NCBI RefSeq assembly: GCF_056712565.1
Contig: NZ_CM160072.1
Strand: one strand, 5' to 3'
DNA length: 64,000 bases
Shown here: in pieces, positions 6,001 through 12,000 of the stretch
Position numbering within the stretch: the first letter of the stretch is position 1
Layout: each line of letters opens with the position of its first letter
Program-made: the position numbers

Positions 6001-9000
6001 GCGCGGTATGGAACTGGATTTTCTTCTGAACCCGGTGGTGATGTACCAGGCTGTTGTTACAGATTTTTAACTCCATGAAAACACTATGCAAACGCAGCCA
6101 TACCCGGGGTGTCCCCTTGCGTTGTGTTCCTCAAGTTAATAGAATACATCGATCGTTACTATTATATTGATCGTTATAAACGATCGTTTGTAGTAAATGA
6201 CCTCCTCCGTGGTTGTCATGAAAATGCGTCTCAGGAAGGTTAAATAATGCACGAAAAGAACATCGCCCTGCTTTGTGATGAAGCCGACCGACTTTTGCAA
6301 CTGAACATTAATCTGCTCCGGCAAATGGTTGAGGAGCCAGATGTGTTATCTGACAGTAAGAACGAAAACAGACTGCTTTTTGATAAACAGAAAGCACTGA
6401 AAAGAATTGAGGAGCTGGAGGGCGAACAAATCAAAACCGCCCGCAGGGAGATGGTGCTGGCTGTTGTCGGCACGATGAAAGCAGGCAAATCAACCACCAT
6501 CAACGCCATTGTGGGGCAGGAAATTCTGCCTAACCGTAACCGCCCCATGACCTCTGTACCGACGCTCATCCGCCACGTTCCCGGAAAAACTGAGCCGGTT
6601 CTCCATCTGGAACATATTCAGCCTGTCCGCAATTTATTAATCACACTGCAGGAAAAACTCGCCACCCCGGCAGGACAGCAGGTCGCACAGACCCTGCAGC
6701 AAACCGGGGATACCCGCGAACTGCTGGATATTCTGACGGATGATGGCTGGCTCAAAAATGAATACCACGGGGAGGAGGAAATCTTTACCGGACTGGCATC
6801 GTTAAACGATCTGGTTCGTCTTGCTGCGGCAATGGAGACTGAATTTCCTTTTGATGAATACGCAGAAGTGCAGAAACTGCCGGTGATCGACGTGGAATTC
6901 AGCCATCTGGTGGGGATGGATGCATGCCAGGGAACACTCACACTGCTGGATACCCCCGGCCCTAATGAGGCCGGACAACCGCAGATGGAAGTGATGATGC
7001 GGGATCAACTGCAGAAAGCCTCTGCGGTTCTGGCTGTGATGGATTACACCCAGATGAACTCAAAAGCGGATGAAGACGTCCGTAAAGAGCTTAATGCCAT
7101 TGCTGACGTATCAGCCGGCCGCCTGTTTGTACTGGTCAATAAATTTGATGAGAAAGACCGCAATGGCGATGGGGCAGATGCCGTACGCCAGAAAGTTCCG
7201 GCAATGCTGAACAGCGATGTGCTGCCCGCCTCCCGCGTTTATCCCGGATCCTCACGCCAGGCATACCTGGCTAACCGTGCGCTTCATGAGTTACGGAAAA
7301 ACGGAACCCTTCCTGTTGATGAAGCCTGGGTCGATGATTTTGTCAGGGAAGCCTTCGGTCGCATGAAAAAAGATTACGTCTGTAAAGACAGCGAACTGGC
7401 AACTGAAGGGGCGACAGACCTGTGGGAATGCTCACTTATCGATCAACTGATAACGGAAGTCATACTGAGTTCACACTCCAGAGCTGCGGCACTGGCGGTT
7501 GATTCTGCCGCCGCAAAACTGATGCAGAATGCAGAAAATATCAGTGAATACCTGTCGTTACGCCATCAGGGGCTGATGCAAAGTATTCAGTCACTGCAGG
7601 CGCATATCACCAGCCTGCTTGAGGATATCCGGGAAATAGCAGACTGTCAGGAGCAGGTGACCGCTGATGTCAGAATGGCCATGGAGGAGATCGATGCCAG
7701 AACCCGGGAATTACTGACGGGGGTCTGCACCTCACTGGAAGAGGAGCTGAATGACTATTTCAGAAGCGGTAAACGCAAAGAACAGCAAATGCTGGAGGAA
7801 GAAAATTCAGCGCAGCCCCGGGAGAGAAACGCATTCGCTTTCTTTCACGATATTTTCGGAACCGGAAATCAGCATGACAGGATGCGGGACTTTGATCCCG
7901 ACAGCCCCGAAATAAAATTCAGTGATCGCAGGGAAGCCCTTGAACTGATGACGCAAATCGAATCGACCGTGACCAGCCTGCACCGTGAGGCTGAAGCACA
8001 GTTCCGGCCTGAGCTGGAGAAAATCGTCAGCGGGATTGAAACAGGTTTTCGTGGCACGGCCCTGTACGCCACAGAAAACATTGCCGGTCGCATCAATACC
8101 CGCCTGGAGGATGAGGGCTTTACCGTAAAAATCAGTTTTCCGGCAGTCAGTCAGTTACAAACCCGGCTCGCGGTAAAAACAAATCTGAGTGCGCTTATGG
8201 AGGAAAGAACGGAGACCGTCACCCGTCGCCGTCGGCAGAGTGGTTTATGGGGAAAGATTTGTGGAGCGTTTGGCACCAGTGACTGGGGCTGGGAAACCTA
8301 TAAAGAGGATGTGAGCCGCAGTGTTATCAATATCAACACCGTCAGGAAGGAAGTTATGTCACTGACCCGGGCATATTTCGGGGAGCTGCAGGCATCCATT
8401 GAGCAGGATATTAACCAGCCCGTCCGCCAGGAAATCGATGCCTTTTTCTGCGCATTCAGGGAGAAAGTTGAACAACTGCGTAACACGCTGATTCAGAGCT
8501 CTGAAGATCATAAACGCGATCAGCAGGCACAGGAACGGCTTACCAGGCGACTTCAGGCATTAAATGAAAGGGTTCCTGAGCTCATTACTGACAGTAAGGC
8601 GCTGAGGGAAGAGCTGGAGACAATGCTGTGACTTCACCATTTATTCAACAAATTGCTGATAACCGGGTATGTCAGGTACTCACCTGTCTTCCTGAAAAAT
8701 TTGTGGTTGATTTCGCAAACGGAATCGATGTTGCACAGGAGCATATCCGCACGGCCGGAGAGCGCACGTTCTTCCGGCGTTTAAAAGAGGGACTGACCGG
8801 CGAAGGCGCTGCACGGCAGAATGCCATCAATGCTTCGGTTGCACAGGGCCTTGAGGCGTCCCTGCGCTGGCTGACGGAGCTGACAACGTCACTTGCCACC
8901 ACAAACTACGCGATTACCCGGGTAAACGACAGGGTCAGTTCACTGGTCAGTGATACTGCCAGGCTGGCGCATTATTCCGCAGATACACGGGAGCAGTTAC

Positions 9001-12000
9001 TCATCCTGGCCGATCAGGTTCACCATAAACTGAATCATCTTGAAGAAAAACTCCACCGTGTTGACCAGGTTCAGCGGGCGCAGTTACATCTTGAGCAGAT
9101 ATTCTCATGGTGGAGCGCCGGGCGATATGCGTCATTTTCCCCTGCCGGACGTTGTTATGTGGCGCTTGAAGAGCTTCGCTGGGGCGCGTTTGGTGATGTG
9201 ATACGTCAGGGCGAAACAGGCCAGGTTAACCAGCTACTGGATATTCTCAGACATAAAGCATTAACGCAGATGGCACAGGAGAGTGGCGGTAGTGCAACCG
9301 TGCGTCTGAACACTCTGGACTGGCTTGGTGGTCAGGGCCGGGAGCAGGCAGATAACGAGTGGCATGACGCGATTAACTGGCTGGGAGACTGGTGCAGTGA
9401 AGAGCAGCATCCGGTGATCTGGTCAACCACGCAGGCTGCAGAACACTTACCGGTTCGCATGCCTCGCCTCTGCTCTGCAGAACGCCTCTCTGAAAGTATG
9501 GTCGATGAAATATTTCAGAAGGGGGCTGCATGAGTACAGAAATGAAAACGGGGCTGGTGCTGTCCGGTGGCGGGGCGGTGGGCGCTTATCAGGCGGGAGT
9601 GGTTAAGGCACTGGCAGAGTGTGGTACACAGATCAGCATGGTTTCAGGGGCCAGCATTGGCGCATTCAATGGTGCCATTATCGCGGCCTCTCCCGATCTG
9701 TCAGAAGCTGCCGTACGCCTGGAGGCGCTCTGGGATCATCTGGGGAATAATCAGGTGCTGTCGGTAAACCGATTGGTTTACTTTTCATTGCTGAAAAAAT
9801 TGTTCCAGGCAATGAACCTCTGCCAGATCCCCGGACGTGCAGGAGCACTGCTTACGACGCTTCTTCGCCATATATCGATACTCAACGGGTTTGACAATCT
9901 GATGGCTCAGCCGTTGTTGTCAGATGAGCCCCTGACAGCGCTGTTGGATCATTATCTTGATACTGATGCTCTGGCAGACGGGCTACCGCTGTATGTGTCG
10001 CTGTACCCCACAGAAGGGGGCATGCAGGATATTATTGACTGCATTCGTGCTGAACTGGGTGCCGGAACCACGAAAAACGCCGTTTTTCAGCATATCCAGA
10101 GCCTGCCCCGCGGACAGCAGAAAGAGGCTCTGCTTGCGTCAGCCGCGCTGCCCCTGCTGTTCCGTCCCCGTGAGGTTCAGGGGACAATGTTCGGTGATGG
10201 TGGTATGGGAGGATGGCGAAATATGCAGGGAAATACCCCTGTGACGCCTCTGGTCGATGCCGGATGCAATATGGTGATTGTGACGCATCTGAGTGACGGT
10301 TCTTTATGGGATCGCCAGGCTTTTCCGGACACCACAATCCTTGAGATCCGTCCCCGGAAAAGGCTGAAATATGCAGGTGATGGTGACAACAGCGGCGGTC
10401 TGCTCAGTTTCACGTTGGCACATACCGACGCCTGGCGTCAGCAGGGCTATGAAGACACGATGCTGACGATGGAGCATATCCGGAAACCGCTGGCAGCACG
10501 TCAGGTACTGTCCCGGTCAGAAACGGTGTTGCAGAAAAGTCTGGAGATAACGGAAGAGGCAGATTTGGCACTGAGAAACGCGATGGCCCGGATTAAATAA
10601 AGACGCCCCAAAGAAACGCCACCGCCTGTGGTGGTGTTTTTCCTGGCTGGTGTTATTGAAAATATTTTCAGATATATATTACCTGAGAGAAAGTTTTACC
10701 CCTCACCTGTCAATTCACTCACTGGAAATTTAATTATGCAATTACCTGTAAAGTTATTAATGAGCCTTATATCTCTGGTCAGCGTTATTGCACGTGCCGG
10801 GAAATATAAAAATTACATCCGGGATGAAATAAAATACTGGCGATATACATCATACAAGGGGGGGGAATTTCCGGAAGGTTTCACTGATGAGAAATTTTCC
10901 AGCGCCATTTACAACGGAAGAATATTTACAATGAAACGTTTACATACCCTGATGTTATTTCTGGCGGTTCTGTTTACTGGCTTTAACGTGGAAGCAGCGA
11001 GCGTGAAACAAGCGCTCAGCTGCGACCCAAACGCCCGGGCTGAACAACCTGGAGCGTGTCCAACAACGTACGAGTTGTACGAAGGTGACGCTGCCTACAA
11101 AGCTGCGCTTGACAAAGCATTAAAACCGGTCGGACTGAGCGGCATGTTCGGTAAAGGCGGGTATATGGATGGCCCTGGCGGAAACGTAACGCCAGTAACC
11201 ATTAACGGTACAGTCTGGCTCCAGGGCGACGGTTGCAAAGCCAATACCTGCGGCTGGGACTTTATCGTAACACTCTATAACCCAAAAACCCATGAAGTCG
11301 TTGGCTACCGCTACTTTGGTTTAGATGACCCGGCCTACCTGGTTTGGTTCGGCGAAATTGGCGTGCATGAATTCGCGTATCTGGTGAAAAACTACGTAGC
11401 TGCGGTTAACTAATTTAAGGAGTCTGTCATGAAAACTTTTATCAAAACTTTACTCGTTGCTGTAACTATTCTGTTCTCTGTCTTCGCTACGGCGAAACAA
11501 GTAAAACTGCCAAACAACATCAAATACGTTAATACTACAGAGGCGTTTTCCTGTACTGAGATTGACGGTATGAATTGCCAGACGAAGAATCCGTTTAACT
11601 ATAAAGATAACAGCTATGTTTTCGTGCTTGAACGTGGTGGTGCCTGGTGTTACGACTACACTGTCTCGGTACTTAACCTGAAAACCGGGAAAGCACAGAT
11701 GCTCGAATACAAAGACAACCAGCTGTGCTCAGGTAGCAACAAACCGTTCTTCGAAATCAAAAATGGCGTACCGACGGTAGGAGTCATCGACACATCCGGA
11801 AAACCTGTCGTTGTGGCTCTGGACAAACTTAAAACCTGAGGAGTAAACCATGCGTTTCTCTGCACATTATTAATATCAAAGGTAAATACAGCCCCAGCCA
11901 TTGTTGCCGGAAAGCCGCTTAATGCGTGGCTCGCCAGTGAAAGGCTTCTCAGACAATAAACCTCATTCATTTCACCCGTCAGGCCGCGTCTTCTCCGGGA

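Follow-up and report, generated by a model that had tools for sequence, protein, structure and literature searches.

What might a dynamin-like GTPase, an RdcB-like protein and a patatin-like phospholipase be doing together in one operon on a bacterial genomic island? The three genes lie in a stretch of 64,000 nucleotides from contig NZ_CM160072.1 (the window, throughout), the host being Escherichia coli and the sequence being 100% identical to that of strains Nissle 1917 and 536. We propose, with moderate confidence, that the GTPase and the RdcB-like protein form a scaffold gated by its GTP state, which licenses the lipase at the membrane, probably in defence against phages.

Table 1. Features of the operon and its surroundings (positions in the window)
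Feature	Position	Strand	Product or start	Basis and remarks
YeeP/YkfA-type small GTPase gene remnant (context only, outside the operon)	5556-6029	+		Weak P-loop GTPase matches; hypothetical protein in RefSeq
Predicted sigma-70 promoter	6117-6145	+		-35 TTGCGT 6117-6122, 17-nt spacer, -10 TAGAAT 6140-6145
Predicted agn43-type OxyR-binding region, candidate epigenetic ON/OFF switch	6139-6200	+		Three Dam GATC sites: 6151, 6169, 6182
RdcA/CrfC-like dynamin GTPase ORF	6247-8631	+	794 aa	Dynamin_N match, CrfC model, G1-G4 motifs
RdcB/YjcZ-family partner protein ORF	8628-9533	+	301 aa, GTG start	
Patatin-like phospholipase ORF	9530-10600	+	356 aa	Intact Ser42/Asp223 dyad; 60-residue C-terminal helix
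Terminator-like hairpin and T-run	10620-10645	+		Terminator scan: CACCGCCTGTGGTGGTG then TTTTTCC; just 3' of the patatin stop codon
Two small ORFs, optional operon neighbours of uncertain membership	10736-11839 (RefSeq 10736-11413 and 11429-11839)	+		Signal-peptide-like N-termini

Operon structure and protein families

A sequence-only reading of this DNA had described one operon of three coupled genes, and the ORF coordinates (Table 1), the Pfam matches and the alignments bear out the 4-nt overlaps, the domains and the intact catalytic residues that it named. The coupling is no coincidence: 63 of 82 loci have a gap of -4 nt between the dynamin and YjcZ genes, and the YjcZ and patatin genes overlap or lie a few nucleotides apart in nearly all loci with all three genes (triad loci). 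The peak 19-residue hydropathy windows (1.0 for the GTPase, 0.96 for the RdcB-like protein and 1.5 for the patatin) indicate that none of the three proteins has a segment resembling a transmembrane helix, as had also been claimed. The terminator-like hairpin behind the lipase gene may be leaky, since “five genes” were reported to be co-regulated in strain MP1. The two small ORFs that follow do not accompany the triad in O157 or E. albertii, and at least 80% of the stretch that holds them is found in 1874 E. coli genomes; neither has a Pfam match at E <= 0.01, the first having a sub-threshold Ivy match (E = 0.067).

The first protein matches Pfam Dynamin_N (2e-18) and carries the G1 (GTMKAGKST, residues 75-83), G2 (T102), G3 (DTPG, 235-238) and G4 (NKFD, 298-301) motifs, which are invariant or nearly so among 74 homologues. 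The second matches Pfam YjcZ (2e-71; 240.8 bits against a cut-off of 27), a small family of 445 clusters among 1.84 billion representatives in which a GTPase gene was adjacent every time in the loci examined. Together with the NCBIfam match and with identities to K-12 RdcA and RdcB of 34% and 31%, respectively, these matches uphold the view that the pair is paralogous to CrfC(RdcA)/YjcZ(RdcB), whose genes stand in the same order in the K-12 core genome and also overlap. The island GTPase scores 550.7 bits against the NCBIfam CrfC equivalog model, less than half of the 1146-bit cut-off, and its identity to RdcA falls from 50.6% in the GTPase half to 24.2% in the C-terminal one. Judging by these sequences, the sensor half appears to have been kept and the output half changed.

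The third protein matches Pfam Patatin (4e-25), and its catalytic elements, earlier said to be complete, are invariant among 53 homologues of 46-89% identity (GGG13-15, G40-x-S42-x-G44 and D223-G-G). From the conserved catalytic residues in both, the lipase is predicted to be catalytically competent and the GTPase active. An AF2 model (pLDDT 78) has a patatin core followed by a helix at 296-355. Foldseek ranked PlpD first, CapV/CapE next, and then VipD and ExoU; among these closest folds are CapV, which is activated by cGAMP, and VipD in complex with the Rab5 GTPase. Patatin lipases typically require an activator.

Given these folds and the location of the locus on islands of B2 strains, both pathogenic and probiotic (536, Nissle and ExPEC XM), one could suppose a host-directed virulence lipase like ExoU, VipD or PlpD, carried on ExPEC pathogenicity islands. 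This is barely credible to us: the operon encodes neither a signal peptide nor an autotransporter domain and contains no gene of a secretion system, the lipase is coupled to cytoplasmic partners, and the cassette is often met in organisms without an animal host, namely environmental Pseudomonas, sulfur bacteria and nitrifiers.

How might the lipase be controlled? In K-12, RdcA is inactive when bound to GTP and moves to the inner membrane when GTP falls or (p)ppGpp rises, RdcB drives larger RdcA assemblies, and the C-terminal half of RdcA is the output domain that binds DgcE (PMC6510439; PMC13463826). By analogy, the island GTPase would read the guanine-nucleotide state of the cell, its output enzyme being a lipase instead of the diguanylate cyclase DgcE. 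The lipase may dock through its long C-terminal helix onto helices of the RdcB-like protein or the GTPase, would be switched on only within the membrane-bound assembly, and would then hydrolyse phospholipids locally. An anti-phage role seems most probable, the target being either the cell’s own membrane (abortive infection) or a lipid compartment made by the phage. The paralogue from which the GTP-gating model is borrowed is only 34% identical to the island protein.

Distribution, co-divergence and neighbourhood

The operon is carried by about 45% of complete E. coli genomes, where it occupies a cargo slot of CP4-44-type islands, in keeping with its earlier description as island-borne. Well beyond this lineage, a patatin gene lies immediately 3' of the dynamin-YjcZ pair in 45 of 80 species-level loci across the gamma- and betaproteobacteria (including Escherichia, Pantoea, Erwinia, Budvicia, Pseudomonas, Psychrobacter, Allochromatium, Nitrosomonas, Gallionella and Ottowia), and look-ups begun from patatin homologues returned the triad in all five cases. 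The survey that the sequence-only reading had called for thus finds the triad conserved as a unit, and we regard it as a self-sufficient accessory operon passed as a whole from genome to genome.

The same reading held that an island CrfC/YjcZ pair had acquired a phospholipase, and here the distribution speaks against it. The two-gene rdcA-rdcB form is one syntenic clade, confined to the Enterobacteriaceae and fixed at a core locus adjoining yjdM and proP, whereas the triad is taxonomically broad; it is therefore likelier that the core lineage lost the lipase than that the island lineage gained one, and the triad looks like the older arrangement, the core pair like a derivative that lacks the patatin.

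The three proteins co-diverge, their matrices of pairwise distances being correlated (r = 0.61-0.85, Mantel p = 0.001). The lipase is the most conserved of them (61% mean pairwise identity), tracking YjcZ most tightly (r = 0.85). These figures bear on a second possibility, that the operon is an island paralogue of RdcA/RdcB in which the pair controls c-di-GMP by regulating a diguanylate cyclase (DgcE or a different MASE1 protein), the lipase being a passenger or secondary output. In RefSeq the product of the second gene is indeed called “diguanylate cyclase regulator RdcB family”, the homology to RdcA/RdcB is clear, and DgcE is directly activated by these two proteins (PMC6510439; PMC13463826). 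Neither the conservation of the lipase nor its tracking of YjcZ is expected of a passenger, however, and with a divergent output half, an equivalog score so far under the cut-off, and triads far outside the family to which the two-gene form is confined, we consider this very improbable.

The flanks of triad loci are variable and rich in integrases and in genes for WYL regulators, JukA, restriction-modification, BREX and Druantia, unlike those of the two-gene form. Families of PADLOC numbering 81 and 155 were matched in two sets of triad-flank ORFs, against 2 in a comparable two-gene set. WYL is the commonest flank family (11 of 248 flank ORFs), lying mostly upstream on the same strand, and some triads adjoin BREX, Mrr, SIR2, type I and type IIG restriction-modification, DruE or integrase genes. 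In five loci (Pantoea, Erwinia and Pseudomonas) a JukA gene follows the lipase by 3-58 nt, a link limited to about 6 of 41 loci; no JukA-like gene was seen beside the triad in the window or in most triad loci. Many triads have ordinary metabolic neighbours, and some sit among housekeeping genes. The association with defence genes is suggestive only, and makes the defence role proposed at the outset plausible.

Could the module serve membrane maintenance rather than immunity? The dynamin would act on damaged inner membrane by tethering or fusing it, as B. subtilis DynA does, or would drive vesiculation, as proposed for LeoA, while the lipase would supply lysolipids or clear damaged lipids, aiding curvature and repair; the WYL and restriction-modification neighbours would merely share an island. 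The first protein belongs to the dynamin family, whose bacterial roles include membrane surveillance and vesicle formation (PMC12922286), its proteins are soluble and cytoplasmic and include an enzyme that acts on lipids, and housekeeping surroundings are known for some triads. We think this unlikely, in that an accessory, patchy and mobile cassette is unexpected for housekeeping repair, the flanks contrast strongly in defence genes with the core-type locus, and RdcA, the closest characterised relative, is a GTP-sensing switch and not a remodeller. Moreover, neither a hydrophobic paddle nor a transmembrane segment was seen in the hydropathy scan of the GTPase, and its binding to membranes would therefore need to be indirect, as for RdcA.

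Has the operon been described before? The claim that the system was undescribed holds insofar as no PADLOC v2 or NCBIfam model gave a system-level match, the operon proteins having only weak PADLOC v2 matches (LeoBC, 4e-6, partial; CBASS lipase, 1e-4). It needs amending in that one 2026 transcriptome paper noted the operon as a putative defence system. In a published transcriptome, the operon is among the genes most strongly differentially expressed between the MP1 lysogen and its cured derivative. We found no published experiment on any triad member. The breadth of the triad, its co-divergence, the contrast between flanks and the candidate agn43-type switch upstream all go beyond what the sequence-only reading had noted.

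The upstream region as a candidate phase switch

The earlier description, sound as to ORFs and domains, overlooked a predicted agn43-type Dam/OxyR switch upstream. The promoter in Table 1, with a predicted start near 6151, fits the geometry of the K-12 agn43/isrC promoter (TTGTCC, 17 nt, TAGAAT, 5 nt, and then the first GATC, where the annotated isrC 5' end lies); a generic promoter scan gave an overlapping candidate at 6136-6165. The predicted OxyR-binding region is homologous to the regulatory regions of K-12 flu and O157 cah, its GATC sites being spaced by 18 and 13 nt (19 and 13 nt in K-12), and E. albertii retains all three sites despite 7 substitutions in 96 nt. Further upstream, the 3' part of the small GTPase gene remnant shares about 97% identity with the yeeP pseudogene of K-12. 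Because the operon stands directly behind such a promoter, with its OxyR site and three GATC sites, phase variation is predicted: from sequence homology, expression would be heritably ON or OFF by the Dam/OxyR mechanism described for agn43 (PMC3764049). In other taxa, a WYL-domain regulator is usually found upstream of the triad.

A switch of this kind is relevant to a further alternative, that the operon is an addiction module stabilising the island, with the lipase a latent toxin checked by the GTPase/RdcB pair, cell death following island loss or imbalance of the three proteins, and any effect on phages incidental. Toxin-antitoxin pairs such as CbtA/CbeA abound on the carrier islands, tight translational coupling fixes stoichiometry, and the many truncated patatin variants among E. 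coli protein clusters (237-262 aa, hundreds of members) would fit a costly gene, although a partial flag on many of these short entries points to contig ends. Addiction is difficult to square with an ON/OFF switch silencing all three genes at once, these large, multi-domain genes, whose products are predicted to be enzymatically active, do not resemble typical toxin-antitoxin pairs, and the WYL and JukA partners point to infection sensing. We hold addiction to be quite improbable.

Comparison with known systems

The preferred reading, a lipase licensed by a GTPase scaffold, has partial counterparts elsewhere. VipD-Rab5 of Legionella and ExoU-ubiquitin are patatin lipases with a protein cofactor (for VipD a GTPase, as in structure 4kyi, one of the fold matches), and cofactor binding, as of Rab5 to VipD, activates the lipase. 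These are secreted effectors that use host cofactors in eukaryotic cells, whereas the triad GTPase is bacterial, cytoplasmic and encoded in the same operon. CBASS with CapV/CapE likewise lies in defence islands and has a patatin-fold phospholipase, inactive until licensed, as presumed membrane-attacking output. The triad operon differs in having no CD-NTase or cyclic-nucleotide signalling gene, its lipase reaches 18 bits against the 200-bit cut-off of the NCBIfam CBASS_lipase model and ends in a single long helix, and the proposed activator is the GTPase complex, not a nucleotide second messenger.

Eleos (formerly “Dynamins”; LeoA/LeoBC) also encodes dynamin-like GTPases in defence islands; its protection was seen against jumbo phages only, and its P-loop mutants lose defence. 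The island GTPase has no LeoA match, and its LeoBC match is the partial one given above. Juk combines a JukA/YaaW sensor with variable effectors, and JukA homologues are the genes that follow some triad lipases. In the Juk literature, JukA pairs with diverse effectors including phospholipases, is fused to GTPase and patatin domains, and often neighbours WYL; neither dynamin nor YjcZ appears in the Juk preprint.

The closest relative, RdcA (YjdA/CrfC)-RdcB (YjcZ) of K-12, shares families, gene order and overlapping stop and start codons with the island pair; the G1-G4 motifs are identical, and both pairs are soluble. In K-12, RdcA is a GTP/(p)ppGpp-sensing switch and RdcB is required for its assemblies at the membrane. 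That pair has no lipase and belongs to the flagellar regulon at its core locus, and is set apart by the sequence divergence described above from the mobile, broadly distributed triad with its patatin. Finally, the agn43 (flu) switch has the same promoter hexamers and spacing as its island counterpart and three GATC sites at the same offsets in a homologous OxyR region, and it too lies downstream of yeeP at the same place in the island. Expression of the Ag43 autotransporter is under its control in K-12, the leader being about 220 nt long (transcription start at L083 5318, flu start at 5540), whereas the island switch is predicted to drive a cytoplasmic three-gene operon behind a leader of about 96 nt.

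A three-gene unit and its distribution

We find that the dynamin-like GTPase, RdcB/YjcZ-like and patatin-like phospholipase genes form a single transcription unit, with a predicted promoter and switch in front of three coupled genes and a terminator-like hairpin behind them, and that the three genes are co-inherited in what is very probably a conserved functional unit. ORF calls and translations returned exactly the layout described in the sequence-only reading, with three ORFs on the same strand joined by 4-nt stop/start overlaps, and its residue numbers for the GTPase G motifs and the lipase catalytic elements were correct. 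It had also reported no obvious TM helix, and a TM-like hydrophobic window is indeed absent from all three proteins.

Positions of the operon, its flanking features and selected homologous loci (window coordinates unless a locus is named; L-numbers are homologous loci from other genomes)
Feature	Position	Strand	Details
TonB-dependent receptor gene and three-gene ABC import	160-5166	-	receptor gene intact
Switch homology region	6117-6200		5' flank of operon
Predicted -35	6117-6122		TTGCGT; 17-nt spacer to -10
Predicted -10	6140-6145		TAGAAT; 5 nt to first GATC
Dam GATC sites	6151, 6169, 6182		in OxyR-site homology region
Dynamin-like GTPase gene	6247-8631	+	794 aa; Pfam Dynamin_N 2e-18
RdcB/YjcZ-like gene	8628-9533	+	301 aa, GTG start; Pfam YjcZ 2e-71, full length
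Patatin-like phospholipase gene	9530-10600	+	356 aa; Pfam Patatin 4e-25
Terminator-like hairpin	10620-10645		after lipase gene
Downstream ORF	10628-11413		no JukA similarity
RefSeq CDS	10736-11413		annotated start possibly too far 5'
Small ORF within that CDS	10934-11413		from internal Met; ~160 aa
Second small ORF	11429-11839		136 aa
WYL-domain gene, L039 and L041-L044	~4787-5503		~105 nt 5' of GTPase gene
cah-triad region, L084 (O157:H7 strain 8368)	2807-11364		
Switch region, L094 (IMG/VR contig)	5463-5576		two overlapping blastn matches
JukA homologue, L004	10034-10840		
JukA homologue, L005			split
JukA homologue, L006	10004-10828		
JukA homologue, L017	9957-10727		
JukA homologue, L040	9993-10730		

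The first protein belongs to the dynamin superfamily by its large GTPase domain and G1-G4 motifs: it scores 67.3 bits on Dynamin_N (cut-off 27 bits), and G1 (75-83), G2 (T102), G3 (235-238) and G4 (298-301) vary little or not at all among 74 homologues. A hydrophobic paddle or tip of the Nostoc BDLP type was sought in it and not found (the top 19-residue Kyte-Doolittle window is 1.02), its sequence similarity to Nostoc BDLP is confined to the P-loop region (1e-5), and a known membrane-binding domain is likewise absent from RdcA (CrfC/YjdA), the GTPase of the K-12 core pair. The second protein covers PF13990 at positions 1-272 of 272 (240.8 bits, cut-off 27) and its gene directly follows that of a dynamin-like protein, the two features that define the RdcB/YjcZ family; its model (pLDDT 79.7), one ~105-residue helix and a helical C-terminal domain, had no informative match in the PDB.

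The third protein is a patatin-like phospholipase family member (PF01734, 89.6 bits, cut-off 27.7), with the Ser-Asp dyad, oxyanion GGG loop and alpha/beta fold, and is predicted to be active. The GGG loop (G13-15), GxS42xG and D223GG are invariant among 53 homologues of 46-89% identity; by motifs and catalytic residues, GTPase and lipase are thus both intact. The lipase model (pLDDT 78) comprises a patatin core followed by a single 60-residue C-terminal helix, and Foldseek matched it with probability 1.00 to PlpD, CapV and patatin. Among solved structures its nearest folds are those of PlpD, of CapV and CapE (CBASS effectors), of VipD, also in its complex with Rab5, and of ExoU, lipases described as silent until a cofactor binds.

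Within E. coli, the operon region is 100% identical to that of Nissle 1917, 536 and further strains, and 2440 of 5426 complete genomes (~45%) carry at least 80% of it, some in as many as five copies. RefSeq names the products 'dynamin family protein', 'diguanylate cyclase regulator RdcB family protein' and 'patatin-like phospholipase family protein'. The carriers include the probiotic Nissle 1917 together with many ExPEC strains, and a contribution to virulence is one rival explanation of the operon.

The triad is also conserved as a unit outside E. coli, a point that the sequence-only reading had proposed to survey. With 445 clusters at 50% identity among 1.84 billion representatives, the YjcZ family is small; a YjcZ alignment, run against one genome for each species, found 80 loci. 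A dynamin-like gene lies immediately 5' of yjcZ in all 82 loci with upstream DNA available, and 45 of the species-level loci have a close patatin homologue (E 1e-56 to 1e-227) directly 3' of yjcZ on the same strand, the 4-nt overlap again being the commonest junction. Hosts include Pantoea, Erwinia, Budvicia, many Pseudomonas, Psychrobacter, Allochromatium, Thiodictyon, Nitrosomonas, Sideroxydans, Gallionella, Ottowia, Aquaspirillum and others. From the opposite direction, every genomic place returned for five patatin homologues was a triad. For the 35 complete triads, distance matrices correlate between the three proteins (r = 0.75, 0.61 and 0.85; Mantel p = 0.001 each), and the lipase is the most conserved component. 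An IMG/VR scan for the cassette gave only 2 E. coli-like matches; it is all but absent from viral contigs and so not typically phage-borne.

Some contigs and database entries deserve separate mention. Triads occur on contigs with non-proteobacterial labels, a Syntrophomonadaceae MAG (L024) and a Spirochaetales MAG (L046), with L025 listed beside them; for L024, mis-binning is likelier than a genuine Firmicutes occurrence, since its neighbouring ORFs are the same as those of the gammaproteobacterial L025. E. coli patatin entries of this family that are only 237-262 aa long are abundant (clusters P0137, P0139, P0148, P0190, P0192 and P0199, each of tens to hundreds of entries). A partial flag on some of them suggests contig ends, and others may be real truncations pointing to recurrent lipase inactivation.

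Relation to RdcA and RdcB

Identity to RdcA is 34% for the island GTPase, and identity to RdcB is 31% for the island YjcZ-like protein. On the RdcA/CrfC equivalog model NF007368 the GTPase aligns over its full length and scores 550.7 bits against a cut-off of 1146 bits, and is hence a paralogue of RdcA, its identity as an orthologue being rejected on model score and gene content. Identity to RdcA is 50.6% in the GTPase half and 24.2% in the C-terminal half, the half with which RdcA binds and activates DgcE. This pattern is compatible with a sensor that was kept and an output that changed. One rival explanation, a paralogous c-di-GMP system, takes its cue from the same relationship.

What, then, is the origin of the two-gene form? 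Lipase-less loci (35, or 39 including K-12 and others) come without exception from Enterobacteriaceae, and they are syntenic, with yjdM in 37/39 and proP in 29/39. In neighbour-joining trees of GTPase and YjcZ, midpoint-rooted and built without an outgroup, they form one clade, which in the GTPase tree is sister to the Budvicia triad. A tblastn search for a decayed patatin gene 3' of yjcZ found none in the 39 two-gene loci, and so only the tree and the distribution speak for lipase loss. The simplest reading, and one that we infer, is that the three-gene cassette is the older and widespread form and that core rdcAB is a fixed derivative minus the lipase. This reverses the earlier proposal that an island CrfC/YjcZ pair had acquired a phospholipase, given that the lipase-less form is one syntenic Enterobacteriaceae clade.

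In basal lipase-less members (Cedecea and Enterobacter spp.) a WYL-domain gene still lies 5' of the GTPase gene, in loci that adjoin yjdM. Triads, too, often have WYL as an upstream partner, and these loci look like an intermediate in the domestication of a mobile cassette into core rdcAB.

Island, predicted switch and mobile context

In the window, the operon sits in a CP4-44-type integrative island. The order is TonB receptor and ABC transporter (- strand), yeeP-type GTPase remnant, operon, two small ORFs, DUF932, antirestriction gene, yeeS, yeeT and cbeA/cbtA, followed by core yeeA, sbmC, dacD and sbcB; the remainder is ordinary core genome (his operon, O6 O-antigen cluster, colanic acid genes). 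At the place of the receptor and import genes K-12 has only the IS-disrupted yoeA pseudogene. Both small downstream ORFs accompany the triad in ~1874 E. coli genomes and are absent in O157 and E. albertii. The first, read from its internal Met, encodes a secreted-like protein (MKRLHTLMLFLAVLFTGFNVEA...) with a CKxxxCG motif, whose sole Pfam match is a sub-threshold one (E = 0.067) to Ivy (vertebrate lysozyme inhibitor). The second clearly begins with a signal-peptide-like stretch, contains several cysteines and matched no family.

In its 5' flank the operon has a region homologous to those that regulate agn43 (flu) in K-12 and cah in O157:H7. Phase variation of Ag43 has an established basis in Dam methylation of GATC sites versus OxyR binding (PMC3764049). 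By homology and geometry the flank has the defining arrangement of this switch, an OxyR site over three GATC sites at or just after the transcription start: the promoter-to-GATC geometry is that of K-12 agn43, and the annotated 5' end of K-12 isrC/agn43 is the first GATC. The region was recognised by alignment and blastn, a fixed-spacing pattern having missed it by a 1-nt indel, and E. albertii keeps all three GATC sites despite seven substitutions nearby. An Rfam scan of 5400-12200 (E <= 0.1) gave zero matches, with none to IsrC either. In L094, the two overlapping matches suggest that the GATC-bearing segment has undergone a short internal duplication.

In O157:H7 (L084) the order is YeeP-like GTPase, cah with its switch, 110 nt, triad and DUF932, where cah encodes a calcium-binding Ag43-like autotransporter; here the triad may be transcribed by read-through from cah or from a promoter of its own. 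In the window the autotransporter gene (Ag43) is absent and the switch directly abuts the GTPase gene, a fusion present in 1981 genomes. From the homology of the switch region we therefore predict ON/OFF (phase-variable) expression of the operon. If so, clonal cultures would be unequal in expression, a confounder in transcriptomics, and phage-therapy or probiotic phenotypes could be bistable. The predicted switch is a possible alternative reading of the operon induction reported in lysogens: a clonal difference in phase state would give the same result as the published expression difference between the MP1 lysogen and its cured derivative.

Beyond E. coli the context of the triad is mobile and defence-rich. 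Flanks are unconserved and there is no universal fourth gene. Among 248 flank ORFs the top Pfam family is WYL/WCX (11), the WYL gene being mostly 5' of the triad on the same strand, followed by helicase/ResIII/SNF2, phage integrases, Eco57I and N6_Mtase methylases, UvrD, DUF927 and Rpn-like transposases. PADLOC models (E <= 1e-10) matched 81 and 155 families in two sets of triad flanks, including WYL, JukA, JukB, type I and type IIG restriction-modification, DruE, type IV-associated DinG and several PDC candidates; the control, 131 flank ORFs from 13 two-gene loci, gave two families only. The Vibrio vulnificus triad has resolvase, relaxase and WYL upstream and BrxL and PglZ nearby, while that of Enterobacter asburiae has an integrase and WYL upstream and Mrr and a PD-(D/E)XK protein nearby. 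The P. fluorescens triad is accompanied by SIR2, AAA ATPase, ankyrin and BrxR-type WYL genes, then a YeeP-like GTPase, integrase, RadC and DUF932; that of Pectobacterium by a CP4-like module with CbeA/CbtA; and that of Plesiomonas by integrase and AlpA. Island addiction is a further rival explanation to be set beside this mobile, defence-rich context.

Proposed role and comparison with known systems

In light of these components, what might the operon do? We propose a gated lipase, in which the GTPase and RdcB-like pair would behave as RdcA and RdcB do, with membrane recruitment by GTP state and assembly driven by RdcB. The pair would license the lipase in place of a diguanylate cyclase, and infection would trigger membrane hydrolysis as the outcome. 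With a defence role attached, we judge this model about equally likely to be right or wrong; membrane repair or vesiculation is another rival explanation. If it is true, bacterial dynamins would be tied to lipase effectors of immunity, and a GTPase complex would license membrane hydrolysis, bringing the cofactor logic of VipD-Rab5 inside one bacterial operon. The RdcA/RdcB (CrfC/YjcZ) core pair would be derived from a mobile cassette, which hints at the original target of its GTP-sensing switch.

A bolder and rather improbable version makes the triad a phase-variable, guanine-nucleotide-gated immune module, whose GTPase would recognise curved lipid membranes where infection takes place, or assemble on them, and as an assembly would deliver a phospholipase that ruptures the compartment. 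One candidate for that compartment, also a target of JukA-based systems, is the lipid 'early phage infection' vesicle made by nucleus-forming jumbo phages, and the housekeeping c-di-GMP regulators RdcA/RdcB of E. coli would be the domesticated, lipase-less descendant.

As the sequence-only reading had surmised, the composition is not that of a named system: none of the PADLOC and NCBIfam system models fits it. CBASS was rejected, as a CD-NTase cyclase is absent from operon and flanks; the lipase scores 18.3 bits on the CBASS_lipase model against a 200-bit cut-off, and PADLOC effector models match weakly (1e-4). Eleos, defined by two (or three) consecutive dynamin-like genes matching the LeoA and LeoBC models, was likewise rejected, since the operon has one dynamin-like gene, with no match to LeoA and one to LeoBC at 4e-6 in which no stretch passes alone.

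Juk comes closer in other taxa. JukA has been characterised as sensing nucleus-forming jumbo phages, and is reported with diverse effectors 'including phospholipases' and also fused to GTPase and patatin domains (Juk literature). In five loci, unlike the window, a JukA/YaaW homologue (DUF3944 and Cbp3-like domain) adjoins the triad 3-58 nt 3' of the lipase gene on the same strand, a four-gene arrangement of Pantoea, Erwinia and some Pseudomonas. The window operon is not assigned to Juk, its downstream ORF having no similarity to JukA.

The literature searched reports no functional test of the triad, and a combination of dynamin, YjcZ and patatin goes unmentioned in DefensePredictor, the domain-centric E. 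coli screen, the modularity networks and Millman 2022; in one paper the operon figures as a putative dynamin defence system. The RdcAB relationship and the agn43-type switch appear to be unreported in that literature, the published Juk paper (Cell 2025, PMC12147104) lying outside its scope. We class the triad as a new and widespread three-part architecture built from dynamin-like and patatin components of immunity.
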